Shown: in pieces, positions 27,644 through 46,207 of the stretch
How the letters are laid out: the number at the start of each line of letters is the position of its first letter
Numbering within the stretch: position 1 is the stretch's first letter
Virus record (IMG/VR): IMGVR_UViG_3300037419_001192
Span: 1-64,000 of that record
Reading direction: 5' to 3' (one strand)
DNA from: a virus
Length of the DNA stretch: 64,000 bases
Translations under genes and position numbers: made by a program
The notes under the pieces: model-generated
The model's input: only the letters and a program-made list of their open reading frames with translations
Told to the model about the DNA's origin: nothing
Database searches by the model: none

Positions 27644-30600
27644 ATGGCGACCTCCAATAACCAGCTTAACATCCTCATTACCCTAACGAATCAAACCAAA
27701 GATACGTTAGGGGAAATTCTTCAGGGACTCGCCTCGATCCAAAGCAGCGTGGATGGGCTGGGCCAAAATAGCGCCGGGGGCATCGACAAGCTTGGCAATC
27801 AATTGCAGGAAGTTGCCAAGCATACCGGGGAAGCTTCGGAGGCTGCCAAGGAAGCCGAAGGCGGTTTCAAGGGCTTCATCGAAAAGCTCAACGGCGCGAC
27901 CGAAGCGGTCAAGTTCTTTGCTGGCGGTTTCCTTGCTATGGAATTCGCGGAAACCATCAAGGAAATCGCTGACGTTGCCGCCCGCACTGAAACGCTCGGC
28001 ATCGTGTTGCAAACGGTCGGCCAGAATGCCGGCTATACCGCGCAGCAATTGTCCGAAGCCGATGCCGCCGTGCGCAGCATGGGCATCACTGCTGAAGCCT
28101 CGCGCCAATCGCTAACCCAACTGATTCAAGCTGGCCTGTCAGTGGACTTCGCGCCGCAACTGGCTCGCGCCGCGCAAGACCTCGCGGTTATCTCTGGGCA
28201 GAATTCTTCGCAAACGTTCCAGCGGCTGGTGGATAACATCCAGCAAATGGACACGCTGGGCCTGCGCTTCATGGGCATCATGGTGGATCGCCAGCAAGTG
28301 ATGGCGCAAGCCACTGCTGATGTCGGCCATGCCTTGACCCAGACGCAAGAAAAGCAGGCATTCATGAATGCCGTGCTGGCGGAGTCCACGAAGCTGACCG
28401 GCACCTATGAAAACGCGATGCAATCGGCGGGCAAGGCGTTGTCCTCGATGTCGCGTTATGTTGAGAATTTCAAGGATGCACTTGGCGAGAATATGCAGCC
28501 GGTGTATCTGCAACTGATTCTCGGCACCGAGCATGTCATTGAAGCACTGACCAATCTGGCAAAGGCATTCACCGAAGCAGCACCGAATGCTGACTTGTTT
28601 GGCGACGCCTACAAAAATGCGGCGGAGGAATACTCTCCGCTGGCCGAAGTCATCAAGAAAGTTGCCGACTCGATTGTTGATTTCGTCAACTTCCTGCGCG
28701 ACAACAAAGATTTCATTGCCGAATCGCTGTCGGTAATACGCGATTCTATCTATTCGATAGCAATCCTCGGCGGCGGCTTGGCAGTCATAGGCGGGCTGAC
28801 CAAGCTGATTGAAATTGCCACTCCGGTTGTAGCTGCGGTGCGTGGTATCGCGGTAACCATGGGGTTGATTGAGGGAGCATCCGCTGCCGCTGCGGGGGGC
28901 ATCGCTGCTGTTGAAGGGGCTGCTGTTGCTGCCGAAGGCGCTACCGCTGCGATGGGTGCCGGATTGCTGGCAACCCTTGGCCCGATTGCCGCTGTCGTAC
29001 TGGCTGTCGGGGGTTTGGCTGCCGCGTACTCCTACCTGTCTTCCAGTTCCGAAGAAGCGAAGCACCATGTCGAAATCGACCTAGATACGGTTGTTCAAGA
29101 TTACAAGGATGCGCTGAAAGCGGTCGAAGACGCGAAGCGGGCCAATGATCAGGCGCAAGCGACCCTGACCAAGCAAGCGAACCTGCTGACCAATGACCCG
29201 ACTGATGAATCCCAGCAAAATGCGGTAAAGCAAGCCCGCGCTGATGCCGAAGCCGCCAAGAAGGCGCTGAAAGAAGCTCAAGAAGAACTGCACCACTTCG
29301 AAGAAGCGCTGGCGAATAGCGAAGAACTGAAATACCAAGATGCGCTGAAGGAACAAATCAAGAAAGTTGCCGAAGCGCATGCCGAAAATGAAAAGGCAAT
29401 CAACGCCGAGAAGCAGGCACAAGCCGAACTGTCCAAGACGCTGCAAGCGGCAGGGATCGATTATCAGGAATACCTGAATGGCATCAGCGAAAAGAATTCC
29501 AATGCGTTCAAGGGGTTGTCGGAAGGTATCCGCGAACTCGGCAAGCTGAATGGCGAGAATATCGGTGATTCTATTCTGGCTACCCTTGAAGGCGGCGAAA
29601 ATCTTTCTTCGGGCGTCCGTACTGAAGCAGAACTGAAGAAGTTCATCGATCTGATGACGCAATTGGATGAAAGGGCCAAGCAGTTCGGCCTCGATATCCA
29701 TGAGCAAGTCGAAGGCTCGATCACCAATGCCCGCAGTGCGGCTGCTACGTTTGCGCAAGACCGGGCGCTTGGCGGTAGAGCCCGTGCTGCCGAACAAGCC
29801 GGTGTGGATCGTCGCGCCGCGCAGCAAAACCGCGCCGACCTGCTGCAAGAAGCCGATGAAGAAAAACTGCGGCAGCAGAAATTGCTGGACATCGATAAGG
29901 AAGCTTACGCGCACGGCCTCGTAGACCTGAACGATTATTACGATGCCCGGCAAAAGGCGATTGAAACCAATGCTCAATATGAGCAACGCGCCCAGCTTGC
30001 CTATATCCAAGGCTTGCTGAATGACCGCTACAACACTTCGGATACGGTCAAGCAAGCACAAATCGACCGCCAGATTGCTGAAGCCCATCGCAAGCTGATG
30101 GAAGCCGGCGATAAGGCCGATGAACAGATCACGCAAAACCAGATCGCCCGGCTTGAAGCCCGGCTGAAGCTGGAGCAAGACGTTGCCAAGGCGGCACAGG
30201 AAGTCAACCAGAATACTGGGAATGGCGACCTTGCCGTTGCCCAGCAAATCGATGACGCCCGGCGCAAGGAACTGGAAACGGTCAAGGCGCTGGGCAGCGC
30301 CGAAGCCGAGCGCATCGTCAACCGCAAATACGATATCGAACTGGAACAGAAGCAAGCGGCGCAAGCTGTTGCTGATCTGGATCGGGAATTGTCTCTGCGC
30401 CGCGCCGTATTCGATCTGGCCGAGTCACAAGCCAAGGTAGCGCTGGACGCCGGCCAGATCACCAGCAATGAAAATCAAGCGATCCAGAACGAACTGGCTC
30501 GCCAGCGCATCACCGCGCTGCAACAGGAATTCGATCTGCAACAGCAGATCAAGCAAAACGCGCTCGATGCCGGCGATGCCCTCGGGGCCGACAAAGCCAG

Positions 30601-33600
30601 CACGAAGCTGGCCCAACTGCAAAAGCAGATGGTCGATCTGTCGGGCACGATCAAGACGTTTGGCGATACGCTGCGCACGACTTTCGCGGATTCCTTTGCC
30701 ACCAACCTGCAATCGGCATTGGAAAAAGCGCAATCGTTCCGGGATGGCTTGTCGGCGGTGTGGAAGGATATCAACACCGCCATCATGAAAAACATCACGA
30801 AGGATATTGCCGAGAGCCTGACCCGCTCCATCGACAATGCCTTCAAGGATGACAAGGGCAATGGCACGTTCGACCGTCTCGGCCAAGCGGTGGATGGCGT
30901 ACCGCTGAAGAATCCCGACCTGTCGAAAAACAATGAAGCGCTGACCGCTGAAAGCGTTGGCAAGGGCGCGGCGGAAACCTACACGCCGGAAGTTGCGACG
31001 CGAGAATTGATCGATGAAACGGTCAAGGCGGCGAACTATGGTTCCCGCACCGCCGACGCCACCGAAGCCATGTATAAGCAGATGGTGGACGCGGAACGGC
31101 AGCGCGAAGCCAATCGTGCGGACAACAAGGGTTACGGCACCGTCAACCCCGGTATCACTGCTGGCAAGGGGGATGGTGCAGTCGGTGGCGCAGCCAAGAA
31201 CGAGCCGTTCGATTACGCTACTGCGCTGGAAGACCTCGATCTGGGCAAAGGCGGCATCAAGAAGCCTGACTTCGACAAGGCATTCGATGATGCGGCCAAG
31301 AAAGCTGGCCTAGACCTGTATGGCTACAACGGCGACATGCTGCGCCATATCGCCACGGTCGAAAGCCGGATGAATCCGAATGCGGAGAGCCCGGCTGGTG
31401 CCCTTGGCGTGATGCAGATCATGCCGGAAACGGGCAAGGCGCTGGGCCTGTCCGAAGACGACCTGCGCGATCCAATCAAGAATATCAATGCCGCTGCACA
31501 AATTCTCGCGGAAAACCTGAAGCGTCGTAACGGGGATATCGACCAAGCCCTGTCCGATTACAATGCCGGCCCGAAGGCCACGAATGCGGCAATTGCGAAG
31601 GGTTTCGATTTTGCCCAGAACAAGGAAACCACTGCATATGTCGGCAGGCTCGGTAGCGATGGTGTTGGGGCACGGGAAGTCAGCGCGGAAGAACCGAAAA
31701 ACCTTGGCCCAACCAAGATCACGGGCGGCGCGGTAGACGGTAACTTCGTTTCGGTGCCGATCTATAACGCGGCTGGCGATGTCGTTGGCTATACGCAGGA
31801 ACCCAAGAACGTTACGGCTCCCGATGTTGCTTCGAAGGGCACGGGCGGTGACGTATCGAATTTCGCAGTGCTGGATGAAGCTTCCGCGCCACAACCGAAG
31901 CCAAAGTCTGTGTCTGGCGTGGATTTGTCGGCAGTCGATGAACTCGGTCGCCCGATCAGCGGGTTGGTGGATGCCACCAAGGACGCCACGGACAAGACCA
32001 AGGCGCATACCGAAGCAACGCAAGATTCCGAGTCGGCAACGAAGGATGCAACGGCCAGCGAGCGGCAATCAATTGCCAGCACCGATGACCATACGACTGC
32101 GACGCATGCCGCCACCGATGCAGCAAAAGCGGGCACCGTAGCCGATCAGGATGCGGCGCAAGCGTCCAAAGCCAATGCCGATGCCCAGAAGGATACGGCA
32201 GGCGCAGTCAAGGCATCCGGTGATGCTTACAAGGGCGTGGGCGATGCCACCAAGGCGGCTGCGGAGGGTTCCAAAACACTAGGCCAAGCCGCAACCGATT
32301 CCGCTACGGCACAGGAAGATGCCAAGGACAAGACAGATGGGCTGGGAGATTCGGCTTCGCAGGCTGGCACCGCTCTGGATAACTCGGCATCGCAAGCGAG
32401 TGCCGCAGGCACGGCTCTAGCAGGCACGAAAGATGCCGCCAATTCCGCGAAAGAGGGCGTGGATGCGATTGGCAAAGCGCATAAAGACGCTGCCCCAATC
32501 ATCAATGCCACTTCAGGTGACACGAAGACGATGGGCGCGGCAGCCTCCGATGCCGCTCTGGCTATCCGCGATTTGAGTGATGCCGGTGCGGCAGCCGGGG
32601 CTGCTATCGGTGGCTTGAAAGGCTCGGGGGCTACCGGGGGTAACTCGGGGCCGGATAGCACTCCTGCCCCGGCAGAGCGCCCGGCAGACGCTCCCAGCAG
32701 TGGTGGTGATATTTCGATGGCGGGCGGAGGTAACGGGGATACCGCGTCGGATTCCGATGTAGAGGCGGCAAAACGTGCAGCAAGGGGTGCGGTAGACCCC
32801 GCCGCGTATGCCACGGGTGGAAATAAAAGTAGCGGTACTGGCGGCAAGAAGAATTGGCTAGAATCCATTGGCAGCGATTTGCTCCGTAGCGGTGAAACCC
32901 TGCTGGGGGCGACCATTGGCCGCGAAATTGGCGGCAAGTATGGCGCTACGATTGGTGCGCTGCTCGGGCGGCAACTGTCGAAGATCGATATGAAGGATAT
33001 CGAAGACTTCTTCGGCAAATTCAAGAACAAGATCAAGGATGGTTTCGATACCACCACCAAAGATGCCGAGAAAAACGCCGACGACACCAACAAAGCTATC
33101 GACAAAAGCGTTAGCGATACGCAAAAAACGGTAGCCGATGGTGCCGAGCAAACACAGCAAACCGTGGCGCAAGGAGCGGAGGATACGCAACAGTCCATCG
33201 CCACGGGAGCACAGCAAACTCAAGACGATATCGCGCTGTCAGCCAAGGATATCCAAGGAGAAATTCAGACTTCTGCGGAAAACATCAATCAGGAGCAAGG
33301 AGATTCCTTCGCGCAAGTCTCGTCCGACCTCGGCGGCGAGTTGCAATCAATTGCCACCACGGCGGATACCGGCTTTGCCGATGTCAGCGATTCCTCGGTT
33401 TCCGGGATCAATGATCTGACCTCGGGTATTGGGGATAACCTAGACAGTGGATTTTCCGATCTTTCTAGCCAAGCCTCGGATGGTGGTTTCGGCATCAGTG
33501 ATTTCTTTTCCGGCTTTGGCGATACGCTGCTATCCGGTTTCGCTGGCCTTGCCGGTATCGTCGGTAGCATCTTTGGCGGTAGCAAGGGTGGCCGGGAAGC

Positions 33601-35428
33601 CTCGCAAGCGGTCGGCTTGGTATCTTCCGCGTACAACACTTACAAAACCGGTTCCGCCGCCTATAACTGGCTGACAGGAGGCAGCACGGCTGCTGCCGGA
33701 GGCGCGGCTGCCGCTTCGTCCAGTCTGGGCGGCACGGCGGCGGTTGAGGCAGGGGCCAGCAACGGCGGCTTGGCTGGTGTATTGGGCGGCACCACTACTA
33801 CGGCTGCGGGAACAGCCGCAGGCACTACGGCAACGGGCACGGCTGCGGCGGGAGCCACCACTACCACCGCTGCTGCGGGTACTGCGGATACCGCTGCGGG
33901 GTCTAGTGCTGCTGGCGCTATCGGTGGTGCTGGGCTGGCAGCCGTAGGCTTCGTGGCGCTCGGCGCTTACCTGCTGGCGAACTGGAGCGATGGTGAAAAG
34001 TCGCTTGGCAATCAATTGCAGTACGACCCGACGAAGGGTGTCCAGAATACCCAGTGGGGCCGGCAAGGTGTCATCAATAACGACGGCACCACGATGGCGC
34101 TGAACGATAGCATCACGCAATTGAACCAACTGCTATCCCAGTTCGGCACCGGCACCCAAGTTGGCTCGCTCAATGCCGGCACCCGCACTTCGGACGATAA
34201 CCAAGCTTTTACCTATGCTGGCGGTTATCTGAGCAACGGCCAATCCTTCGGCCAACTCGGCGGCACCGGCAAGCAGGTTCCGCTGAAGAACCCGGATGGC
34301 TCGATCAAGACCGATGGCTATGGCAACCCGATCTATGGCGTCGATCCGAGTGCAAACGAGGGCGTGACGAACCATGGCACGGTCACCGATCCAACCACGA
34401 TGGCACGGAACTATATCGATGACTTGGATCGTTCCGTTCTTTCCGCGCTGCAAAACTCGCATCTGGTGGGCGATGTCGGTAACTACCTTGCCCAACTCGG
34501 TGATGTCACCAAGCTGACCACGGAACAGTTGGCTGCCGCGATGGCCTATGTGCGGCAAGCTGCTGCCTCGATCACCGATGCACAGCGGGCGGTGCAAGCT
34601 GCCGCGACTGCCAGCGCCCCACTCGTTACCGTCCCGCCGCCGCAACCCACTCCGGACATGGGTGGCGATGCGGGGCAAGCCACTTCCGGCCCCGGCGCTA
34701 CCTACACTCCGGATAACGGTGGTGACGCGGGTACTTCTGGTGGCGGTGCCGGCGCTATCTATACCGGCTCCACCGGGGGCGATGGCGCTCCGGCCCCGAC
34801 CGCGTATGTCGCGGATGCCGGTGGCGATGCCGGCACTTCCGGCTCGGCTCAGAACAGCGATGACTTCCACAAAGGCATACTCCGATATCTTTCTTCCCGA
34901 TTGGATTTGGGCGATGTGCTGCATCAATACCTGATGGGCCGAGATTGGAACTCGATGTCCGGGGATGAGCTAACGGCTTTCTATGACAATGCAGTGGTGC
35001 TGGCGCATCGGGCCGCTGACCAGAGCGGTATCCAACTGGCATTTGCCGAAGGTGGTCTAGTCACCGGCCCCGGCACCGGGACTTCGGATTCGATCAATGC
35101 CCGGCTGTCGAATGGCGAATTCGTGATCCCGGCTGAAGTCACGAAGAAGTATCTGCCGATGCTGGAAGCCCTTCGCACTGGTCGCTTCGATGACATGATG
35201 GGCAACTTGTTTGGCGGGATGCATATTGCCGTACCTCAAGCTCCAGCGTATGCTTCGGGTGGCTTGGTTGCGAGCAACAATTCTGTGGCAGCAAGCCCTG
35301 TGCGCCGCTCCGGCCCGGTCAATATCTATGTGACCACGAAGGATGCTGATTCTTTCCGCCGCAGCAAAGACCAAATCGTTGGCGAATACAACCAAGCCCT
35401 GAAACGCACTGATCGAAGGGATGCATGA
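27644..35428 (+). CDS. tape measure protein with SLT lytic transglycosylase domain
   Basis: 2594 aa, Ala-rich helical; VESRMNPNAESPAGALGVMQIMP...YNAG...ETTAYV; C-term GGLVTGPGTGTSDSINARLSNGEFV. Confidence 0.93.
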   Translation: MATSNNQLNILITLTNQTKDTLGEILQGLASIQSSVDGLGQNSAGGIDKLGNQLQEVAKHTGEASEAAKEAEGGFKGFIEKLNGATEAVKFFAGGFLAMEFAETIKEIADVAARTETLGIVLQTVGQNAGYTAQQLSEADAAVRSMGITAEASRQSLTQLIQAGLSVDFAPQLARAAQDLAVISGQNSSQTFQRLVDNIQQMDTLGLRFMGIMVDRQQVMAQATADVGHALTQTQEKQAFMNAVLAESTKLTGTYENAMQSAGKALSSMSRYVENFKDALGENMQPVYLQLILGTEHVIEALTNLAKAFTEAAPNADLFGDAYKNAAEEYSPLAEVIKKVADSIVDFVNFLRDNKDFIAESLSVIRDSIYSIAILGGGLAVIGGLTKLIEIATPVVAAVRGIAVTMGLIEGASAAAAGGIAAVEGAAVAAEGATAAMGAGLLATLGPIAAVVLAVGGLAAAYSYLSSSSEEAKHHVEIDLDTVVQDYKDALKAVEDAKRANDQAQATLTKQANLLTNDPTDESQQNAVKQARADAEAAKKALKEAQEELHHFEEALANSEELKYQDALKEQIKKVAEAHAENEKAINAEKQAQAELSKTLQAAGIDYQEYLNGISEKNSNAFKGLSEGIRELGKLNGENIGDSILATLEGGENLSSGVRTEAELKKFIDLMTQLDERAKQFGLDIHEQVEGSITNARSAAATFAQDRALGGRARAAEQAGVDRRAAQQNRADLLQEADEEKLRQQKLLDIDKEAYAHGLVDLNDYYDARQKAIETNAQYEQRAQLAYIQGLLNDRYNTSDTVKQAQIDRQIAEAHRKLMEAGDKADEQITQNQIARLEARLKLEQDVAKAAQEVNQNTGNGDLAVAQQIDDARRKELETVKALGSAEAERIVNRKYDIELEQKQAAQAVADLDRELSLRRAVFDLAESQAKVALDAGQITSNENQAIQNELARQRITALQQEFDLQQQIKQNALDAGDALGADKASTKLAQLQKQMVDLSGTIKTFGDTLRTTFADSFATNLQSALEKAQSFRDGLSAVWKDINTAIMKNITKDIAESLTRSIDNAFKDDKGNGTFDRLGQAVDGVPLKNPDLSKNNEALTAESVGKGAAETYTPEVATRELIDETVKAANYGSRTADATEAMYKQMVDAERQREANRADNKGYGTVNPGITAGKGDGAVGGAAKNEPFDYATALEDLDLGKGGIKKPDFDKAFDDAAKKAGLDLYGYNGDMLRHIATVESRMNPNAESPAGALGVMQIMPETGKALGLSEDDLRDPIKNINAAAQILAENLKRRNGDIDQALSDYNAGPKATNAAIAKGFDFAQNKETTAYVGRLGSDGVGAREVSAEEPKNLGPTKITGGAVDGNFVSVPIYNAAGDVVGYTQEPKNVTAPDVASKGTGGDVSNFAVLDEASAPQPKPKSVSGVDLSAVDELGRPISGLVDATKDATDKTKAHTEATQDSESATKDATASERQSIASTDDHTTATHAATDAAKAGTVADQDAAQASKANADAQKDTAGAVKASGDAYKGVGDATKAAAEGSKTLGQAATDSATAQEDAKDKTDGLGDSASQAGTALDNSASQASAAGTALAGTKDAANSAKEGVDAIGKAHKDAAPIINATSGDTKTMGAAASDAALAIRDLSDAGAAAGAAIGGLKGSGATGGNSGPDSTPAPAERPADAPSSGGDISMAGGGNGDTASDSDVEAAKRAARGAVDPAAYATGGNKSSGTGGKKNWLESIGSDLLRSGETLLGATIGREIGGKYGATIGALLGRQLSKIDMKDIEDFFGKFKNKIKDGFDTTTKDAEKNADDTNKAIDKSVSDTQKTVADGAEQTQQTVAQGAEDTQQSIATGAQQTQDDIALSAKDIQGEIQTSAENINQEQGDSFAQVSSDLGGELQSIATTADTGFADVSDSSVSGINDLTSGIGDNLDSGFSDLSSQASDGGFGISDFFSGFGDTLLSGFAGLAGIVGSIFGGSKGGREASQAVGLVSSAYNTYKTGSAAYNWLTGGSTAAAGGAAAASSSLGGTAAVEAGASNGGLAGVLGGTTTTAAGTAAGTTATGTAAAGATTTTAAAGTADTAAGSSAAGAIGGAGLAAVGFVALGAYLLANWSDGEKSLGNQLQYDPTKGVQNTQWGRQGVINNDGTTMALNDSITQLNQLLSQFGTGTQVGSLNAGTRTSDDNQAFTYAGGYLSNGQSFGQLGGTGKQVPLKNPDGSIKTDGYGNPIYGVDPSANEGVTNHGTVTDPTTMARNYIDDLDRSVLSALQNSHLVGDVGNYLAQLGDVTKLTTEQLAAAMAYVRQAAASITDAQRAVQAAATASAPLVTVPPPQPTPDMGGDAGQATSGPGATYTPDNGGDAGTSGGGAGAIYTGSTGGDGAPAPTAYVADAGGDAGTSGSAQNSDDFHKGILRYLSSRLDLGDVLHQYLMGRDWNSMSGDELTAFYDNAVVLAHRAADQSGIQLAFAEGGLVTGPGTGTSDSINARLSNGEFVIPAEVTKKYLPMLEALRTGRFDDMMGNLFGGMHIAVPQAPAYASGGLVASNNSVAASPVRRSGPVNIYVTTKDADSFRRSKDQIVGEYNQALKRTDRRDA

Positions 35429-36597
35429 TGGCACTGTTCAATGAAGCCCGGTTCAATACCGGCATTCGCTATGGCACCGTGGGCGGGCCGACTTTCTCCA
35501 CCGATGTCGAAACCGTGACCTCGGGCCAAGAGCAACGCAACGCCAACTGGAAAGACAGCAAGGGCAAATGGCAAGTCGGGGATGACTTGTTCAATCGGCA
35601 GGAAATCGACCATTTGATTGCCTTTTTCCGCGAACGCAAGGGTAAGGCGGGCGGTTTTCGCTTCAAGGACTGGTCGGACTACGAAGCCAAGTTCAATATC
35701 GAAACGCTGACCATCGAAGGCGTGGTAGTGGAAGTCGAAGGCACCACCGATCTACAAATGGCGAAGGAATACAAGGTGCCGAACGGCACGACGATCCGCC
35801 TGATCACGAAACCGGTGCCGGGCACAATCAAGTTCTGGCAGCCCTCGACCCCGGTGCAAGACCCGGTGACCGGTGTATGGACGTTCGGCACCGAAGTCAC
35901 CGGGGGCGGTATCGACTACACCACCGGCAAGATTGCGGGCGGCTCGACCGGCTTGCGCTGGACGGGGGAATTCGATGTGCCGGCCCGTTTCGATACCGAC
36001 CAGTTCAATTCGACCTTCGAAGGTTACCGGGATAGCGATGGCGAAGCCTTGTTCTCGGTATCGGGCTTGACCATCGTGGAAATCAACCAGAACCCGATCA
36101 CGATCCCGCTGACAGTGATTTCGACCATCGGTGGTGGGGTAGCCAACCCCGCTCCTTCTGGTGGCGGCACGGGCGGTTCTACGGGCGGCACGGGCGGCAA
36201 TACCGGTGGCTCGACGGGTGGCACGGGTGGGACTTCGACATTCACCGTGACGATTTCCCCGACCCCGCCGATTGTGACGACAGTTGCAACGAATACCGGA
36301 TCAGCCACGGTCACGACGCCGCCGATTACGGCAACCGCAGTGGGCGGGCAATCCGGCGCGGTCTACACCTATGTTTGGGAAAAGCTGGATGGCGATATCG
36401 ACCAGACCCTGACCGACAACAGCTATACCGGCGCGACCAAACAAATGACTTCGACGGTTACCACGACGCAAAACTCGGTGGCGACATGGCGGGTGCGCGT
36501 GACCGACCAGTATGGCACCACGGTCTACAGCGACAACATTTCCGTGACGCTGACTGCCACCGGCAGTTTGGCTTCGTGGGGCACCGCACCGCTGTAA
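35425..36597 (+). CDS. distal tail protein (DUF2460-like) with C-terminal Ig-like extension
   Basis: GGPTFSTDV...SGQEQRNANW, FF..RKG...GFRFKDWSD, EFDVPARFDTD; GGTGG linker then Thr-rich domain. Confidence 0.88.
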   Translation: MMALFNEARFNTGIRYGTVGGPTFSTDVETVTSGQEQRNANWKDSKGKWQVGDDLFNRQEIDHLIAFFRERKGKAGGFRFKDWSDYEAKFNIETLTIEGVVVEVEGTTDLQMAKEYKVPNGTTIRLITKPVPGTIKFWQPSTPVQDPVTGVWTFGTEVTGGGIDYTTGKIAGGSTGLRWTGEFDVPARFDTDQFNSTFEGYRDSDGEALFSVSGLTIVEINQNPITIPLTVISTIGGGVANPAPSGGGTGGSTGGTGGNTGGSTGGTGGTSTFTVTISPTPPIVTTVATNTGSATVTTPPITATAVGGQSGAVYTYVWEKLDGDIDQTLTDNSYTGATKQMTSTVTTTQNSVATWRVRVTDQYGTTVYSDNISVTLTATGSLASWGTAPL

Positions 36598-36606
36598 GGA
36601 GGCACC

Positions 36607-37929
36607 ATGCGATATATCTCTGCGGAATTGAAAGCGCATCTGGCGCAGGAGCAAACCACGATTGCCACTTGCTGGCGGGTGCTGCTGAAGAACGGCAAGA
36701 TGTTTGGCTTCACCGACCATACGCGGGATATCCTGCTGACCGAATCGCTGCCGCCTTCGATCCAAGCGCTGTTTGCCACCCCGATTTCCAGCGTCGATCT
36801 GGTGTATCAATCCTCGTCCGGCTATACGCCGAGCGCGGTGCAATCGTCTTCGATGCTGAATGTTGATAACCTAGAAATCGAAGCGATTTTGAATAGCCCG
36901 GTCGTGCAGGAGCGGGATTTGATCGCTGGCCTATGGGATGGGGCGCGGGTGCAGCAATTCATCGTCAACTACGAAGACCTGACGATGGGGCGCATGATTT
37001 TACGCTCGGGCTTCATCGGCAACATCACGATCAAGAATGCCAGTTTTGTCGCGGAAGTCCGTGGTTTGACGCAATATTACGCCAACAATATTGGCGAGTT
37101 GTATAGCCCGACTTGCCGCGCCCGCTTGGGCGATGCCCGCTGCGGCTTGAGCCTTGCCGCGTTCACCACGACTGGCACCGTGGATACGGTCAACAACTCC
37201 ACCGGTACGGTCTATAGCAGCGCAATCACGCAGCCGGGCGGTGCTTATACGTCTTCGATCACTGGCATATCGCAAGCCCAACGTGCCGTGGTCACGACTT
37301 CCGGGGCGCATGGCTTCATCAATGGCGATGTCGTGTATATCGATGGGGTACAGGGCGTGGTGCAAGTCGGCAGCCCCGGTGTTCTCGACCCCAGCGGCAC
37401 CCCGTATTTCGGCACCGGAGCAACGCTGAACGGCCAATCGTTCGTGATTGCCGATGTGACTTCGAATTCGTTTTCAATCCCGGTCGATACCCGCACCAAT
37501 GGCACGGCGGATGGCGTCGCCGGCCCGCTGTACAACATGATTTATTCCCCGTATCAAGGCGGCGGCACTGTTAGCCCGCAGGGCGAGAGCGGTTATTTTG
37601 CGTATGGCACCGTGACCTTCACTTCGGGCTTGAATGCCGGCCTATCGATGGAAGTCAAGCAATCCGCACCGGGCGGCTTCGTGCTGCAACTGCCGATGCC
37701 GTATGACATTGCGCCGGGAGATACTTTTTCGGCGGTGGCCGGTTGCTCCGGGCGTTTCAAAGAAGATTGCCAAACGAAATTCAACAACGTCATCAATTTC
37801 CGGGGCGAGCCCTACCTGCCGGGCCTCGATCATGTGCTGCAATACGGCACCCAGCCGCTGTGGCAAGCGCAATCCGAAGCGCTGGCGAGCGATCCCTCGG
37901 TGACCAACACGGGTGGCGGCGTGGTCTAA
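36607..37929 (+). CDS. tail hub protein (DUF2163/BR0599-like)
   Basis: ATCWRV...GFTDH, CRARLGDARC, GC...C..KFNNVINFRGEPYLPG. Confidence 0.88.
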   Translation: MRYISAELKAHLAQEQTTIATCWRVLLKNGKMFGFTDHTRDILLTESLPPSIQALFATPISSVDLVYQSSSGYTPSAVQSSSMLNVDNLEIEAILNSPVVQERDLIAGLWDGARVQQFIVNYEDLTMGRMILRSGFIGNITIKNASFVAEVRGLTQYYANNIGELYSPTCRARLGDARCGLSLAAFTTTGTVDTVNNSTGTVYSSAITQPGGAYTSSITGISQAQRAVVTTSGAHGFINGDVVYIDGVQGVVQVGSPGVLDPSGTPYFGTGATLNGQSFVIADVTSNSFSIPVDTRTNGTADGVAGPLYNMIYSPYQGGGTVSPQGESGYFAYGTVTFTSGLNAGLSMEVKQSAPGGFVLQLPMPYDIAPGDTFSAVAGCSGRFKEDCQTKFNNVINFRGEPYLPGLDHVLQYGTQPLWQAQSEALASDPSVTNTGGGVV

Positions 37930-37957
37930 GTTGGCAATCAATTGCCGGGAGAATTGC

Positions 37958-38401
37958 ATGGCTACAAGAGAACAGATCGTCGCAGAAGCTAGGAGTTGGG
38001 TCGGCACCCGCTGGCACCATCAAGCCCGCGTCAAGGGCCATGGCGTCGATTGCCTTGGGATGGTCACCGATTTATGCGAAAAGTTGAACCTGTCGCCGGG
38101 CTTCCGCTGGGGCGATTGCCCGGAATACCATGGCTACGGCATGCAGCCGGATGCCGACCAGTTGCTCGAAGCCGTGCATCGCTTCCTGATTCCGGTAGCG
38201 CTGACAGACATCCGGAAAGGCGATGTCGGGGTCTTTCGCTTCGATGGCGGGCCGCAGCATTTCGCCATCTTCACGCAAGAAGACCCGCTATACATCGTGC
38301 ATGCCTATGCCCAAGCAAGAAAAGTCGTAGAACATCGCTTCGATGGCACATGGAGTGCCCGGCTGGTGGGGGCATTCCGTTTCCCTAACACGGAGGATTG
38401 A
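37958..38401 (+). CDS. NlpC/P60 tail-associated peptidase
   Basis: ARSWVGTRWHHQARVKGHGVDCLG, PQHFAI, IVHAY. Confidence 0.92.
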   Translation: MATREQIVAEARSWVGTRWHHQARVKGHGVDCLGMVTDLCEKLNLSPGFRWGDCPEYHGYGMQPDADQLLEAVHRFLIPVALTDIRKGDVGVFRFDGGPQHFAIFTQEDPLYIVHAYAQARKVVEHRFDGTWSARLVGAFRFPNTED

Positions 38402-39259
38402 TTGACCACGTTGATCCTGAGTGCCTATGGCGCGGTGGCCCCATCGTATGTGAATTCTCCGGAACTCGGATTTCCTGCTGGATCGTTCCTCGGTGCCGCG
38501 ATTTCGCCGGATCGCAAGACCATCAATACCCGCAACTCGAATGACTTGCGCAACCAGTCTTCGACCTACGGCAACCCTATCCCTATCGTGTTCCCCAATT
38601 ACCGGGTAGCAGGAAATATCATCTGGTCGGATGACATGCTGGGCACCCAGACCGGCACTGGAACTTCTGCGGTGACCACCTTCACGCAATCGTTCGCGGT
38701 CGGCATCTGCGAAGGGCCAATCGTCGGGGTGCGGCGCGTCTGGGCCGATAACAAGCTGATTTACGATACCCAGAGCCCGGTGTCCGGCAGCGGCTCGGCG
38801 GGGCTCGCCTTCAAAGCCAAGGGCTTTCGATTGTATTTCGGCAGTGAAAACCAGTTGCCCGATCCGCTGATGGAATCCATTGAGGGCGTTGGCAACGTTC
38901 CGGCCCACCGGGGCATGGCGTACCTGATTATCGAAGACCTCGACCTGACCGAGTTTGGCAATCGATTGCCAGTGCTGAATTTCGAAGTGGTCACGACGAA
39001 TGGCTTGCTGCTGAAAGATGTGGTCACGCTCGTTTCCGAACGCTGCGGCTTGTCTGCCGATGATATCGATGTCTCGATGCTCGGCGCATCGCTGCATGGC
39101 TATGGCATCTTGCATATGACCGGCAGGAATGCCTTGGAGCCATTGATGCAGGCATTCTTGTTCGATGCGGTGGAAAGTGGCGAAGTCGTGAAGTTCGTAT
39201 TGCGCGGTAATCCGCCTGTGCTCACTATTGCAGCAGAAGAACTTTTGGAGTCTGCATAA
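38402..39259 (+). CDS. tail tip protein N-terminal module, paralog 1
   Basis: STYGNPIPIV..RVAGNIIW, FAVGICEGPI, QLPDP, VPAHRGMAY, FGNRLP, DAVESG..KFV.RG. Confidence 0.85.
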   Translation: MTTLILSAYGAVAPSYVNSPELGFPAGSFLGAAISPDRKTINTRNSNDLRNQSSTYGNPIPIVFPNYRVAGNIIWSDDMLGTQTGTGTSAVTTFTQSFAVGICEGPIVGVRRVWADNKLIYDTQSPVSGSGSAGLAFKAKGFRLYFGSENQLPDPLMESIEGVGNVPAHRGMAYLIIEDLDLTEFGNRLPVLNFEVVTTNGLLLKDVVTLVSERCGLSADDIDVSMLGASLHGYGILHMTGRNALEPLMQAFLFDAVESGEVVKFVLRGNPPVLTIAAEELLESA

Positions 39260-41346
39260 TGGCATCTCTCGCACTCGGATCAATGCAAGCGAATGCCGGG
39301 GTCATCATCCCCGGTGCCGGTGCATCCACCGGGTATATGTATGGCTCGTCACTGGGCACCGCGCTATTTCCCGAAGTGAAATCGGGCGGGCCTAGCCTTG
39401 CCGAATTGAAATTCCAAGATTCGACGCTAGGCATGACGATCCCCATCGTGTATGGCGCATTCCGAGTCGCTGGTAATGTCATCTGGGCGACCAGCCTGAA
39501 AGTCTCGACCAAGTATCCGGGCAAAGACCCGAACCACCCGAACTACACTTGTTCGTTCGCAGTTGGCGTGTGCGAAGGCGGTAAGGGTATCCGCAAAATG
39601 TGGTTCGATTCGAAGCTGGTGTATGACGCCAGTTCGGTGAAGATCATCCATGGCTTCCATGCGTCTTCCTTCAAGATTTACATGGGCACCGAAGACCAGT
39701 TGCCCGACCCGACCATCGAAATGGATAAGGGCGTTGGCAATGTGCCAGCATTCCGGGGGCTGGCCTATGTGGTGTTCAACACGCTGGAGTTGGTCGAATA
39801 TGGCAATCGATTGCCAAACATTTCTTTCGAAGTCGCGGATATCGATACTGGGCCGACGCTGACGCTGACCTACAGCCCCATCGTGGATTACATGGGCGGC
39901 ACCAGCAATCTCGCCAACATCACCTACTACCAAAGCATTGCCTACGATTCAATGTCGAATACGGTTTGGCAAATGCTGCTATACCAAGCCATCAAGCAAG
40001 ATGACCCCAAGCTGACCGGCACCTTTGCAATCATCGATGCGAAAACCATGACGGTACTTGGCACCACGACCGGGGAGCCCGGCTTTGGCCCGAATGGCAT
40101 CACCGATGGCACGTTGGCTTACCAGATGGAGCCGGGCTACCTGATCGCCAACCCGAAGGCGAATCAAATGATTTACTGGGAAAACGATTCGCCTCCGATT
40201 GTCCGGGCCTATAACGCGACGACCGGAGCATGGTTGTGGGACAAAAATTTCTATGATCCGGCTCACCCGCTGCGCTTTCCAGAACCTGACCCCTATAGCG
40301 ACCCGATGGATGGCTGCTGGGTCAACCAGTACGATGGCTCGATCTGGGTTTCCAGCGTGTATGGCATCCAGCAATTGAGCAATGCCGATGGCAGCATTCT
40401 CCGTACTTTCCCGCTGCCGAGTGCCCCCGCAACGGATGATGTTTTTGAAATGACCTTTTACAAGGACAAGTTCATTTACTACACCACTTCGGGAAATTCC
40501 GGCGACTCCACTACCGGCAGTGTTGTCTTCCATGTGCGCGGCCTGAATTTGTCCACGGGGCAAGTCGTGAATTACCTGAGCGGAAACACTTCTACCTCCA
40601 CGGGCTTTACAGTCAATTTTCGTAGCATTACCTGCGACACCCTGCGCAACCACTTCATCGTTCTGAAAGCCGAATCGCAAACCACGACGACCGTGGGGGA
40701 ATCGCTGCGGCTGATCGTTTATGATCCAGTTGCCATGATGGTAATCACAGATAAGCCGATCAGCTACACCACCCTCGATAACGGGGAGCAATCGACCGCC
40801 AACCTCGTCAATGCCATCCCGCAGTACGATCTGGCCCATGATTGTGTCTGGGTAACGAATTTTGTCACCGGCATGGATTACTTAAATAACGGCACGATTG
40901 CGAATGGCAATACCTTGGCAGCGCTCGATCCGGTGACGCTCGATTTGCTAATCCAGAGCGAGCCGATAGATATCGGCATTCAACCCGTAGCGATTGGCAA
41001 CGATACGCTGCCATGCGTGTATGTGAATACGGCGAATTACAACGGCACCGCGAAATATTGCTTTGGCACCCAGTCTCCGCCCGGCCCGGCCACCCTCGGG
41101 GAAACCCTGTACGATATGTCGGCGCGGATCGGTCTGGTCGGCCAAGCGGATACCAATGGCTTGTTCCAGAAAATCAAGGGTTTCGCAGTCACGCAGCAAA
41201 TGCCTTGCCGCAGCGCAATGCAGCCGCTGATGCAAGCCTACTATGTGGATGCGGTGGAATCCGGGGAAACGGTGAAATTCGTGCAGCGCGGCCAGCCCCC
41301 GGTAACTACGATCCATATGGATAACGCGATTCCGGAGGGACAATGA
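39259..41346 (+). CDS. tail tip protein N-terminal module, paralog 2, with ~400-aa beta-propeller-like insert
   Basis: Same motifs as paralog 1, with a long repeat-like beta insert after GNRLPNISFEV. Confidence 0.85.
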   Translation: MASLALGSMQANAGVIIPGAGASTGYMYGSSLGTALFPEVKSGGPSLAELKFQDSTLGMTIPIVYGAFRVAGNVIWATSLKVSTKYPGKDPNHPNYTCSFAVGVCEGGKGIRKMWFDSKLVYDASSVKIIHGFHASSFKIYMGTEDQLPDPTIEMDKGVGNVPAFRGLAYVVFNTLELVEYGNRLPNISFEVADIDTGPTLTLTYSPIVDYMGGTSNLANITYYQSIAYDSMSNTVWQMLLYQAIKQDDPKLTGTFAIIDAKTMTVLGTTTGEPGFGPNGITDGTLAYQMEPGYLIANPKANQMIYWENDSPPIVRAYNATTGAWLWDKNFYDPAHPLRFPEPDPYSDPMDGCWVNQYDGSIWVSSVYGIQQLSNADGSILRTFPLPSAPATDDVFEMTFYKDKFIYYTTSGNSGDSTTGSVVFHVRGLNLSTGQVVNYLSGNTSTSTGFTVNFRSITCDTLRNHFIVLKAESQTTTTVGESLRLIVYDPVAMMVITDKPISYTTLDNGEQSTANLVNAIPQYDLAHDCVWVTNFVTGMDYLNNGTIANGNTLAALDPVTLDLLIQSEPIDIGIQPVAIGNDTLPCVYVNTANYNGTAKYCFGTQSPPGPATLGETLYDMSARIGLVGQADTNGLFQKIKGFAVTQQMPCRSAMQPLMQAYYVDAVESGETVKFVQRGQPPVTTIHMDNAIPEGQ

Positions 41347-42170
41347 CTACCCTAGCCCTTTCCGGACAAACCGCCGCGCCCCCGCAAAAAACGGCGCAGG
41401 GCGGCTTGATGACGGGCTCGCTGATCGGCTCGTCATTATTCAAGAACACGAATAACTCGGGCAGCCGGCTATCGGACTTGAAGGTGCAATCCTCGGCTTA
41501 TGGCAATGCGATCCCGATTGTGTTTGGCAGCTACCGCGTGGCCGGCAATGTGATCTGGTCTACCAATCTGCAACAGGTCGGCACCGGTACTTCCTACATG
41601 GTGTCATGTGCGATTGCAATTTGTGCTGGCCCGGTGGTTGGCGTGACACGGGTATGGGCTGACAACAAGCTGATCTATAACGCCCGCACCGATATCGGCA
41701 CCCAAGGCCAAGCCTTGCCGGTCGGCGCAGTGACGTTTTATCCGGGCAGCGAAACCCAATTGCCCGACCCCACGATTGAAGCCTATGAGGGTGCAGGCAA
41801 TGTGCCGGCGCATCGCGGCATTGCTTATGTGGTGCTGACCGATTTGCAACTGGCACTCTTTGGCAATCGATTGCCAAACTTTACCTTCGAAGTCGGCGCA
41901 CCGACCCCAGTGCCCTTGCCGGTACGGGATGTGGTTGCCGAACTGAGTCGGCTATGCGGCATGGCCCCGGATCAACTCGATGTCGCGTCGATGCAATCGG
42001 TATTGCATGGCTTTGCGCTGACGCGGCAGCAACCATGCCGGGCGGCGCTGGAACCGCTGATGAAGCTTTTTCGATTCGATGCGGTAGAATCTAGTTCCAC
42101 AGTGAAATTCGTTGAACGCGGCAATCTGCCCGCCCTTGTGTTATCGATGGATACCACGATACCCGGCTAG
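41343..42170 (+). CDS. tail tip protein N-terminal module, paralog 3
   Basis: SAYGNAIPIV..RVAGNVIW, QLPDP, VPAHRGIAY, FGNRLP, DAVESS..KFV.RG. Confidence 0.85.
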   Translation: MTTLALSGQTAAPPQKTAQGGLMTGSLIGSSLFKNTNNSGSRLSDLKVQSSAYGNAIPIVFGSYRVAGNVIWSTNLQQVGTGTSYMVSCAIAICAGPVVGVTRVWADNKLIYNARTDIGTQGQALPVGAVTFYPGSETQLPDPTIEAYEGAGNVPAHRGIAYVVLTDLQLALFGNRLPNFTFEVGAPTPVPLPVRDVVAELSRLCGMAPDQLDVASMQSVLHGFALTRQQPCRAALEPLMKLFRFDAVESSSTVKFVERGNLPALVLSMDTTIPG

Positions 42171-42178
42171 GAAACCCG

Positions 42179-45100
42179 ATGAGCAAAATTAACATTGTCA
42201 GGCAACAAGAATCGGAATTGCCCGCGCTGGTATCGGTGCAGTACATCAACCAAGGTGCCAATTACCAGCAAGGGGTGCAAACCGCGAAACGCTTCACCGC
42301 GCATAGCAGCCAGCAAGTCACGATCCAATGCCCGATTGTCTTCACCGATCTGGAAGCCAAGCAGATCGCGGAAATCCTGATGTACAACGCATGGATCGAA
42401 CGCGACCGCTTTACGCTGACGCTGCCCCGGAAATATGCGTATCTGGAGCCGACCGATGTATTCAATATCTATGATCCGATCAACTCGTTCATCTTCACGG
42501 TGCGGATCGTATCGAAAACCGAATCCCGCACCGGCACCGTAGCGCTGGAATGCGTCGCTGACCATGCGCCGCTGTACAAGCAAAATGCCGCGACCTCGAC
42601 CGTGCAGGCGCAAGTGCAGACCGGCACTGTGGCCTCGCAAACCATCGTTGCACTGATGGACTTGCCGGCGCTGACGAGCCAGAACTATTCGACCGGGTAT
42701 TACCTCGCGCTGGGCGGTACGAACTCGGGGTGGACGGGCGGCTCGCTATACCAATCACTCGATGGTGGACAAACCTATACGCTGGTGCAATCCACGGCGG
42801 GTGCCGCGACGATGGGCACAACGCTAAATGCGCTCTCGCCATTCCCTACCGGGGGTATCGATACCACCGATACGTTGACCGTTTCTATCACCAGCGGCAC
42901 CCTATCTTCCACGAATGCCACCGGCTTGGCGAACGGCGTCAATACCGCATCGGTGCAAACGGTAGGCGGCTACGAAATCATCCAGTTCCAAACCGCAACC
43001 CTGCGCAGCAGCGTCGATGGCGTCGATACCTATGTGCTGTCTGGCCTGACCCGTGGAGAATATGGCACCGAATGGGCCACGGCGGGCCATGCGGTGGGCG
43101 ACCAGTTTGTATTGCTGGATTCCAACGTGATCCGGGTGCCAATATCCACAACGCAACTCGACCAGCCGATCCTGTACAAAGCGGTATCGACCGGGCAAAG
43201 CCTGTCCTCGGTATCATCGTTCACACTGTCGAATACCGGCGTGGCGATCAAGCCGTATGCACCGGTCAACGGCACGGCAACGCAGGCTTCCAGCGGCGAT
43301 GTGACGATAAGCTGGACGCGCTCGCTGCGAGTTGGCGAAACCAGTTCTTCGACCGCGACTTACCAAGTCGAAATCTTCGATGCCACATTCAACACGCTGA
43401 AACGCACGATCACGGGTATCACCGCGTCGGGCATGACTGCCGGCACCACGTACACGGTGGCGCAGCAGACGCAGGATTTCGGCGGCGTGATTTCCGAGTT
43501 GTATGCCCGGATTGAACAAATCGACCCGACCGTGGGCGTGGGCTACCCGGAACAAATCGATGTGCCGCTGCAAACCACGACTACCACGACCACGGGCGGC
43601 AAGTTTGCTGGCGTGGTGGAAGCAGCCAATGCGGCAACGAGTGCCGATGCCGATCTGGTGCCGGCTGCCGTTGGCGGATCGCAATGGAATCCTTCCGCCA
43701 CTGGCCCGGCTGTGACGTTGCTGAACAACAGCTATTCGATGGAAGTGCTGGATGGTGCAATTTCCACGACTAGCTGGGAAAGCGCCCTGTCGATTACTTC
43801 GCAAACCGCTGGCAAATGGTATGCGGAAACGATCTTCAACAATGTCGGCTACTACAGCGTCGGCTTTGGCGTGGGCACGGCGGCGCAAGCTCTCACCGGC
43901 AATACCTCGCCTCCGGGCAGCAATGCGAAAAACGCCTTCATCCTCGATTCCGGCAGCAGCACCAGCAGCTTCCGCTTCAATGGTGTGACCGATAACACAT
44001 TGCCGGGCATCCACAACAATGACCGCATCGCCATGGCAGTGGACTTGGATGCGCAACTGGTTTGGTACTCGGTCAATGGCGGCAACTGGAACAACAGCGC
44101 CTCGGCCAATCCCGCTACCGGGGTGGGCGGCAAATCGTTCGCCGGGATTGCTGCCGGCCCGTACTACTTGCTCGGTACGGTAGTGTCCTCGACCGGGTAC
44201 TCCAGCGGCGAAGTCACTCTCAGTTCGCAGAACTACCTGACGGTGCCAGCAGGCTTTTCGTCATGGGATAGCACCACGATCCAGCATCCGCCTAGCTCGC
44301 TGTCGGCCTCAATTACCGAAAGCAATACGGCAACGGATTCGATGGATAGCCAATGGACGCCGGCTGGCAGCGCAATCAAGGGCACGGCGGGGCTCACCAA
44401 GCTGTATGGCGATGCCAGCATGGACGATGGCTACCAGCAAATCACGATCCCATTCCCATTCAAATTCTTCAGCACCGATTACGGCAACGATGCGAATGGC
44501 GGCGTCTTCGTCGGCTCGAACGGGTATGTCACGTTCGGCCAAAGCAACACCGCGTATTCCGGCCTGACTGCCTCGGTTCTCGGCAGGGCACTGGCGATCC
44601 ATGCCGGCGACCGCAGCCTCCAGCGCTTGTATGGTGGCATGGATGGCAGCAATTACCGTATCCGCTATGAAGGCGATATCACTTCTGGCGGCACGGCGGG
44701 CAGCCCGACCGAAGTATGGGAATTGACGTTTGCCACCGATGGCCGCATGCAATTGGCGATGGGCGTCGAAGGCACGATTGCGGCGGGCGATGCAGGCGTA
44801 TCCGGTATCTCGAATAGCATCACGATTTCCCCGACCTTCAATCCGACCACATGGACGAGCTATGTATTGACGCCGGATGCGAATGGCGCGAACTGGGTGA
44901 TCACGACCGGCACGTTGACGAACGGCACTTCGGGTGGAACGTCTGGCGGCACGACGCTGACCCCAACCAAGTATGTGTCCCCGACCGGCAGCGATTCGAA
45001 TCCGGGTACGCAAGCAGCACCATGGCAATCGTTTGCCAAGGCGGTTGCCAGCGCGGTGCCGGGCGATGTCGTTGCCTTCATGGATGGCACTTATACCCAA

Positions 45101-46207
45101 GGCGAGATTGCAATCACGAATTCCGGTACGCAGGCCAATCCGATCACGTATATGTCGCTCAACAAGTGGGGCGCGGTGATCAACTCGACTTCTACCAATT
45201 CGTCTACCGGCGCACATCCGGGTATCTCGCTGTATGCAAGCTGGATTACGATCAAGGATTTCGTGATGCAGCCCGATGCCGGCACTACACCTACCACCAC
45301 ATATACTTCGGCAAACTGCGATATCCGTGCATGGGACAATGGCACTCCATCGGCATCGAACGACACGACCGGCTATGTCGGCTGCCATATCACCGGGGTC
45401 AAGTCGCTGTCCACCAGCAGCGCCCGTGCGATTGCATTCAAGTCGAATCAGGATTCGACCATCATCGAGGATTGCACTACGCATAACGTGATTGAAATCT
45501 TCAATTCGAAAAATTCGATTGTTCGGCGCAACACGATTCTCGGCCAAGACCAGAGTGGCATTTCGCTGTTGGCGAAGGGCGGCATCCGCAGTGCGCAAAT
45601 TTATGGCAATACGATCCACAATATCTTCAGCGGCGGCTGGGCGATTTGCATCGGCGGCACGACTGCGCCGGGCAACTTCTATGACAATACCGCGCAAATC
45701 GAAGCCTACAATTGCGTCGCCTTCAGTAACGTGGTCGTCAATGAATCGTCTGGCGGCTGTGAAGCCTTGCTATTCTGCGGCGCGAAGGATTCGGCATTCT
45801 TCAATAACACGGTGACTGGCTTCTGTACCGTGGGCTCGCGCAGCAGCCCGAACAATCTGGTGGCCTCGACCAACCCGACGCTGAAGAACAATATCTTCAA
45901 GGGCACGGGCGGCAACTGGGAAGGAGGCTATTCCTTTGCATCGGGCTGGGCTTACAACGGTACTTCGACCATCGATTACAACGATTTCTATAACTATGGC
46001 TCGACCCCGACGCAGACCCATGGCTTGACCAGCGATCCGCTGCTGGTGAATGCCTCGTCCGATTGGCATTTGCAATCGGGCAGCCCGTGTATCGGTGCCG
46101 GTGCAACGCTGACCTTCACCGGCTTCTATGGCGAGTCAATTACTGTCTCGACCGATCTGGCTGGAGATACCCGCACCGCGCCATGGTCGATGGGTGCCTA
46201 CAAGTAA
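42179..46207 (+). CDS. tail tip C-terminal module / central fibre with SPRY-like, beta-sandwich and beta-helix domains
   Basis: [25 protein letters not shown]...[21 protein letters not shown]; GKWYAE...MAVDLD (SPRY-like); [17 protein letters not shown] beta-helix start. Confidence 0.85.

Follow-up and report, generated by a model that had tools for sequence, protein, structure and literature searches.

Our analysis of the first 64,000 nt (positions 1-64,000, hereafter the window) of IMG/VR record IMGVR_UViG_3300037419_001192 revealed that the tail-tip protein, or megatron, of this uncultured long-tailed phage is distributed over four genes: three tandem paralogs (N1, N2 and N3), each encoding a front half or N module, and one gene encoding the rear half or C module. 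We read these three intact N modules and one C module as a real, functional split of a tail-tip protein of the gene transfer agent (GTA) type, and the four-gene layout suggests a tip whose subunits differ from one another rather than being three copies of one chain. Descriptions of solved tail tips, of both the GTA type and the lambda/T5 type, give them threefold symmetry with a single kind of hub or megatron chain. In the baseplates of RcGTA and R4C, the tip has threefold (C3) symmetry and is composed of three copies each of hub and megatron, and the N-terminal helices of the megatron close the channel as an iris (PMC7296036; PMC10276861). The features of the split gene are listed below; handles beginning with L and P denote related loci and proteins.

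38402-39259, + strand: N1, insert-less N module of 285 aa, with iris/penetration segment, adhesin-like plug and alpha/beta hub domain.
39259-41346, + strand: N2, N module of 695 aa with a peripheral insert of ~411 aa; ortholog of the single N gene of L115.
39847-41079, + strand: propeller-like insert of N2, ~residues 197-607, placed by an alignment gap and 7-bladed propeller matches in the Atlas; homologous inserts in P0187 and P0026.
41343-42170, + strand: N3, insert-less N module of 275 aa, assigned by Pfam, phmmer and comparison of an AF2 model with 6TBA g15.
42179-46207, + strand: C module of 1342 aa, with tube-like hub (central) domain, Rcc01698_C fibre-binding domain, fn3, a middle part and a C-terminal beta-helix lyase-like domain.
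42179-42560, + strand: C head, residues 1-127, a complete tube-like hub domain (AF2 predicted local distance difference test score, pLDDT, >92; Foldseek).
44966-46204, + strand: right-handed, polysaccharide-lyase-like beta-helix at the C-terminal end, ~residues 930-1342 (5OLQ match; weak Chondroitinase_B match; kept in the L115 C module).

The three N proteins are paralogs with pairwise identities of 41-49% and 90 invariant alignment columns, and they have in common an N-terminal M-[TA]-[ST]-L-x-L segment, an FGNRLP motif and a terminal DAVES..VKFV.RG motif. An earlier note on this DNA had described three tandem genes of 285, 695 and 275 aa that stop at the same homologous DAVES..VKFV.RG point, and both the open reading frames and the alignment agree with it exactly. 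In Pfam terms, positions 1-49 of PF13550 correspond to the last 45-49 residues of each N protein, which ends at model position 47-49, while the C gene covers positions 55-157 and continues with PF23666 (Rcc01698_C; E 1.1e-22). The start of C, R-x-QE-x-ELP, is the family consensus at the corresponding point; together with PF13550 position 55 this bears out the proposal that the C gene begins where the single chain would continue. Against RcGTA g15, N3 aligns with residues 22-202 and 762-830 and C (residues 4-460) with residues 851-1300. The match to residues 22-202 of 6TBA has a phmmer E value of 1.8e-32, and this iris and adhesin-like part is present in N1, N2 and N3.

Each of the four genes is preceded by a Shine-Dalgarno sequence and has a start codon of its own (GGAGGA-TTG for N1, GGAG-ATG for N2, GGAGGG-ATG for N3 and AGGAA-ATG for C), and the junctions are, in order, TAATG, ATGA and an 8-nt spacer before C. 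The TTG start of N1 is correct, since the homologous N-terminus begins there. Unlike the single polypeptide of RcGTA g15, the megatron domains are thereby spread over four genes with their own starts, and no slippery-site or intein features were found. The four pieces might be thought to result from mis-assembly, frameshifts or pseudogenisation, or to be rejoined by frameshifting or protein splicing. We regard this explanation as barely credible: the reading frame does shift by -1 at each junction, and apparent frameshifts occur in a few related loci (L014, L075), but each gene carries a ribosome-binding signal and a start at the homologous N-terminus, and flanking inverted repeats of the invertible-cassette kind are absent. 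A frameshift fusion was rejected because no slippery heptamer lies ahead of the N3 stop, and an invertible or shufflon cassette because the sole inverted repeats are copies of a genome-wide palindrome (see below).

The same split was found in other phages. One exhaustive profile-free search and two indexed searches, with proteins clustered at 50% identity and the three genes of the window included, yielded 29 N-only protein clusters that stop 0-6 residues from the N ends in the window. Four of them lack an insert (270-292 aa), and one is present in more than 20 (600-790 aa). One of the 29 is P0187, located on the IMG/VR contigs L115 and L116, where the locus consists of tape measure, distal tail protein, hub, peptidase, N (776 aa) and C (848 aa). 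The N/C junction there is an ATGA overlap, and C starts at the residue identical to the C start in the window; the two C proteins are 38% identical from residue 1 onward and have a terminal beta-helix in common. N2 matches P0187 over the head (42%), the propeller and the tail (31%), and both end at the same residue. L115 and L116 (the P0187 clade) thus resemble the window phage in cut point, C start motif, propeller-bearing N and beta-helix C end, and differ from it in having one N gene instead of three. Moreover, proteins identical to N2 and N3 are recorded on 7 contigs. The suspicion that the split is an assembly artefact is therefore excluded as far as sequence can tell, and the split is best regarded as a working, inherited feature.

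Of the 91 IMG/VR loci with relatives, nearly all have the megatron as a single fused chain, as do isolated phages and prophages in metagenome-assembled genomes. Searching IMG/VR with the C head as query found nothing, and the contigs of the other N-only proteins were recovered neither with P0030 and P0028 as IMG/VR queries nor with P0030 and P0224 as JGI metagenome queries; P0026 returned only fused prophage genes in GTDB genomes, and the P0175 search led to a fused relative. A second recurrent break lies after the adhesin-like domain, as seen in 41 head-only clusters, many of ~195-210 aa, and in loci L087, L090 and L091. In L087 (7935-13572) and L091, a 205-aa head-only gene is followed by a 543-aa head-bearing gene and then by a gene that starts with the alpha/beta hub and central domain, a layout of two head paralogs with a cut point different from that of the window. 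In L045 (4725-12800), a fused full megatron precedes a second copy broken into a head gene and a gene with a partial N tail and the central domain.

The N copies are old and constrained, as indicated by Nei-Gojobori ratios of non-synonymous to synonymous substitution rates (dN/dS) of 0.21-0.51 with dS of 1.4-2.4, that is, at saturation. At the DNA level they are 67-76% identical in the best stretches, with no long identity, and recent gene conversion was rejected on these values. Decay, which the earlier note had raised as a possible refutation, is likewise excluded within the limits of such data, given dN/dS below 1 and conserved motifs intact in N1, N2 and N3. With the identical N2 and N3 proteins on 7 contigs and the same cut in L115/L116 and 29 clusters, the explanation by artefact, decay or rejoining is already largely refuted.

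Concerning the history of the three copies, an IQ-TREE analysis of the head and tail regions placed N1 and N3 as sisters (support 97/86), in a weak grouping with the insert-less P0005 and P0146, whose placement differs between FastTree and IQ-TREE. N2 has no firm place in the tree; it may be sister to N1 and N3, a clade of all three window genes not being rejected in the approximately unbiased (AU) test (p 0.485), or sister to other propeller-bearing N proteins. By its match to P0187, N2 is the ortholog of the single propeller-bearing N, and N1 and N3 are later insert-less duplicates. Based on the tree and the orthology of N2 and P0187, the simplest history would comprise four steps. The ancestor would have been a fused, propeller-bearing megatron, which would have been split into N and C; N would then have been duplicated with loss of the propeller, and a second duplication would have produced N1 and N3 flanking N2.

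Independent duplication of N genes appears to have taken place in three or more further split lineages. Co-location of N-only pairs was deduced from identical longest-contig sizes and sources: P0204 (292 aa) and P0111 (788 aa, with an LVIVD-propeller Pfam match) are both recorded for a 22,699-nt contig, P0224 and P0246 for a 93,091-nt contig, P0183 and P0234 for a 6,952-nt contig, and P0184 and P0031 for an 8,714-nt contig. In the tree, P0204/P0111 (99/87) and P0224/P0246 (100/94) are sisters, while P0183, P0234, P0184 and P0031 form two cross-contig orthologous pairs (100/98, 100/99), indicating a paralog pair kept through speciation. Tandem full-length megatrons were observed in two cultured phages, namely Erythrobacter phage XM05 (L098, 2623-10561; 1183 and 1199 aa, with a small fibre gene between them) and Brevundimonas phage Marchewka (L099, 3390-10417; 1185 and 1156 aa). 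These two phages resemble the window phage in carrying tandem megatron-type genes behind the peptidase, but their copies are complete (~1150-1200 aa each) and unsplit.

Structural models were used to locate the cut. The AF2 model of C residues 1-210, built from a 64-sequence alignment, has a pLDDT of 91, and its residues 1-127 comprise four strands, a long helix and four further strands. Foldseek matched this C head to the megatrons of R4C and RcGTA and to JBD30, Chi, T1, T5 pb3, lambda J, Mu gp44 and VgrG, with probability 1.00 against 9IOZ, 8K35, 3D37, 1WRU and 4MTK. In the N3 model (pLDDT 73), residues 50-270 match residues 63-840 of the 6TBA g15 chain (VIA, Z 15.8), with Z scores of 9-13 against T5 pb3 and lambda J. 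Residues 190-260, with a beta-alpha-beta-beta-alpha-beta-beta order, match secretin N0 domains, VgrG 104-181 and Mu-type hub 108-182 (Z 5-6.5 against the N0/VgrG domains), and residues 263-275 have a pLDDT below 50. The alpha/beta domain of the N tail, its low-confidence end and the complete C head together place the cut in the linker between two hub domains. According to these models, the cut thus lies between two structural domains at a flexible linker, although Pfam suggests a cut inside one; the split described in the earlier note stands. The N module may accordingly be described as an alpha/beta hub domain resembling gp27 domain 2 and N0, into which the adhesin-like plug and an optional peripheral domain are inserted, whereas the C module is predicted to open with the tube-like hub domain that comes next and to continue with the fibre-binding domain and a lyase-like spike.

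Among the N genes of the window, an insert (~residues 197-607) is confined to N2, as the alignment gap and the Atlas model both show, in line with the claim of a sole propeller-like insert of ~400 aa in the second paralog. Its identity as a propeller is a model-based lead: the Atlas model of N2 matches 7-bladed YncE-type propellers with template-modelling (TM) scores of 0.55-0.73, and the insert may be a 7-bladed propeller. It occupies the slot of the peripheral domain of the RcGTA megatron, which comprises residues 230-744 (PMC7296036). The TIM-barrel-like peripheral domain PF13547 had no Pfam match in the window genes, N2 having the propeller-like insert and N1 and N3 none; peripheral domains of the PF13547 type also vary among fused relatives. 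As for the other end of the protein, the C-terminal region of the C module matches rhamnogalacturonan lyase 5OLQ (E 3e-4) and, weakly, Chondroitinase_B. Such a beta-helix lyase-like end is absent from the RcGTA megatron and has a counterpart in L115 (13800-14874). Some 470 residues between the fibre-binding domain and the beta-helix are without domain assignment.

In the assembly that we favour, N and C modules would reassemble non-covalently on a ring of three hub and three C chains (hub3-C3), and N1, N2 and N3 would fill the three equivalent N positions of one tip. The result would be heteromeric, most simply with N1:N2:N3 at 1:1:1, so that threefold symmetry would be broken and one propeller would be displayed instead of three. 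Since all N proteins keep the iris segment and, at their end, the DAVES..VKFV.RG docking motif, and the genes form one translationally coupled operon, positions in the same tip appear the most likely use of the three products. Co-assembly of N1, N2 and N3 in one tip is therefore our tentative first choice, which we put somewhat short of an even chance. A unique N2 would create two non-equivalent neighbour positions, which would explain why two insert-less paralogs are kept and not one, and the retention of N1 and N3 as insert-less sisters flanking the ancestral N2 favours position-specific roles. A stricter form, in which an obligate, ordered N1-N2-N3 heterotrimer sits on a C3 hub-C ring and the tip is asymmetric by design, with a single propeller adhesin and a three-part non-equivalent plug, is possible but more doubtful.

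Several points speak against co-assembly. C would be required at three times the amount of each N, of which the sequence gives no sign. Other lineages appear to carry two N paralogs, and XM05 and Marchewka carry two full-length megatrons; neither number fits three positions one-to-one. In addition, the adhesin-like domain is a plausible receptor binder, and diversification into alternative specificities would thus be equally natural. The N proteins could then serve as alternative tips, either as separate homotrimers of each paralog on the common hub3-C3 ring or in random mixtures. One infection would release mixed virions that differ in their adhesin-like surfaces and in the presence of the propeller, as a form of host-range bet hedging. 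The most divergent stretches among the paralogs are indeed the loops of the adhesin-like domain, the lineages with two paralogs or tandem full-length megatrons agree with such a role, and several receptor-binding proteins per phage are common. However, co-translated paralogs with a common docking motif would need a strong homotypic preference against mixing, and alternative tips offer no specific explanation for the keeping of two separate insert-less paralogs. We consider the alternative tips, with the bet hedging that they would provide, unlikely but the main rival to co-assembly.

It is also conceivable that the ancestral N2 alone is the structural tip subunit and that N1 and N3 are accessory, acting as assembly chaperones or placeholders, as ejected membrane-penetration proteins or as decoys. 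In the related phage L115 one propeller-bearing N is enough, and the family often has plug or head domains of ~200 aa as separate proteins, as in the 41 clusters and three loci mentioned above. On the other hand, nothing of a full N module is missing from N1 and N3, which retain both the alpha/beta hub domain and the terminal docking motif and have evolved under purifying selection. These features make an accessory role rather improbable. Taken together, co-assembly in one tip is favoured over alternative tips; both are ahead of the accessory role, and artefact or recoding is less likely still.

The source record is a complete genome of 102,690 bp with direct terminal repeats, and all late genes in the window lie on the + strand. 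Upstream of N1 the tail module contains the following genes.

27644-35428, + strand: tape measure protein, 2594 aa.
35425-36597, + strand: distal tail protein (DUF2460; PF09343, E 1.9e-41).
36607-37929, + strand: baseplate hub of RcGTA g13 type, with attachment domain / phiJL001 gp84_N and BR0599 (PF09931, E 6.9e-51; PF09356, E 1.1e-23).
37913-38401, + strand: small NlpC/P60-like tail peptidase, 162 aa, in the g14 position (weak PF00877, E 0.0088; phrog_329 minor tail protein, E 3.3e-14; synteny).

The order of DUF2460 distal tail protein, g13-type hub, peptidase and N/C genes is that of the RcGTA and R4C baseplates, and on this gene evidence the phage has a baseplate of that type. Its tape measure of 2594 aa implies a very long tail and is much longer than that of L115, the related phage with a split megatron (1751 aa). 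No megablast match to the region was found among GenBank phages.

A 16-nt palindrome, YGGCAATYRATTGCCR, occurs in 31 copies in the window (up to 2 mismatches) against 0.06 expected, for example at 8332, 12224, 15494, 17866, 24118, 26937, 38956, 39801, 41861, 46210, 49718, 54049, 54899 and 63618. Copies are intergenic, at gene ends and starts, as well as intragenic in all three frames (GNQLP, WQSIA, AINC), and the palindrome was absent from 117/117 loci of other records. Its occurrence looks like that of a signal used across the genome, for protein binding or as a hairpin. In N1, N2 and N3 the conserved FGNRLP, which closes the plug domain and immediately precedes the insert slot, is encoded by perfect copies at 38956-38971, 39801-39816 and 41861-41876. 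Since identity is only ~70% in the flanking DNA, codon choice at the motif seems to preserve the palindrome, which could also have served as a recombination point for insert gain or loss.

Compared with the megatrons of RcGTA (Rcc01698/g15; PDB 6TBA/6TEH) and R4C (PDB 8GTC), the window phage has the same synteny after distal tail protein, hub and peptidase. It also has the homologous iris and adhesin-like part (with the E value and Z score given above), the central domain PF13550 and the fibre-binding domain PF23666. However, theirs is a single chain that assembles into a C3 homotrimer and bears a TIM-barrel-like peripheral domain, whereas the window phage has four genes, a peripheral domain in one of three front halves that is propeller-like rather than a TIM barrel, and a rear half longer by ~880 aa, including the lyase-like beta-helix. 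The alpha/beta fold of the N tail and the tube-like fold of the C head are those of the hub proteins T5 pb3, lambda gpJ, Mu gp44, T4 gp27 and the type VI secretion protein VgrG, in which both domains are on one chain; GTA-type tips already use hub and megatron, and the window phage has three gene kinds. A parallel for paralogs of unequal length in one trimer is offered by the cement proteins gp48 and gp49 of phage T1, which form a 1:2 heterotrimer by cryo-EM (PMC11945409). There, too, a short paralog is combined with one bearing an extra domain, but these are capsid decoration proteins and not tail-tip proteins, and the likeness is an analogy to a co-assembly that we only infer for the N proteins.

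A search of the available literature library for megatron paralogs or heterotrimers found no paper, and the split and duplicated megatron is, as far as could be seen, recurrent in sequence data and undescribed in the literature. Where such breaks recur, they fall at the real domain boundaries of a family that is continuous in its Pfam models. The non-covalent joint between N and C that we propose would already provide a place at which tip modules of laboratory phages could be engineered or swapped, and the window phage is a concrete candidate for a symmetry-broken tip. If the ordered heterotrimer is true, cutting the megatron at the linker between hub domains would have opened the way for broken symmetry to evolve, and the repeated duplication of N in split lineages would be explained thereby. 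A separately encoded and repeatedly duplicated plug-and-adhesin half may provide a modular route to altering the receptor-facing end while the tail-docking part is left untouched.

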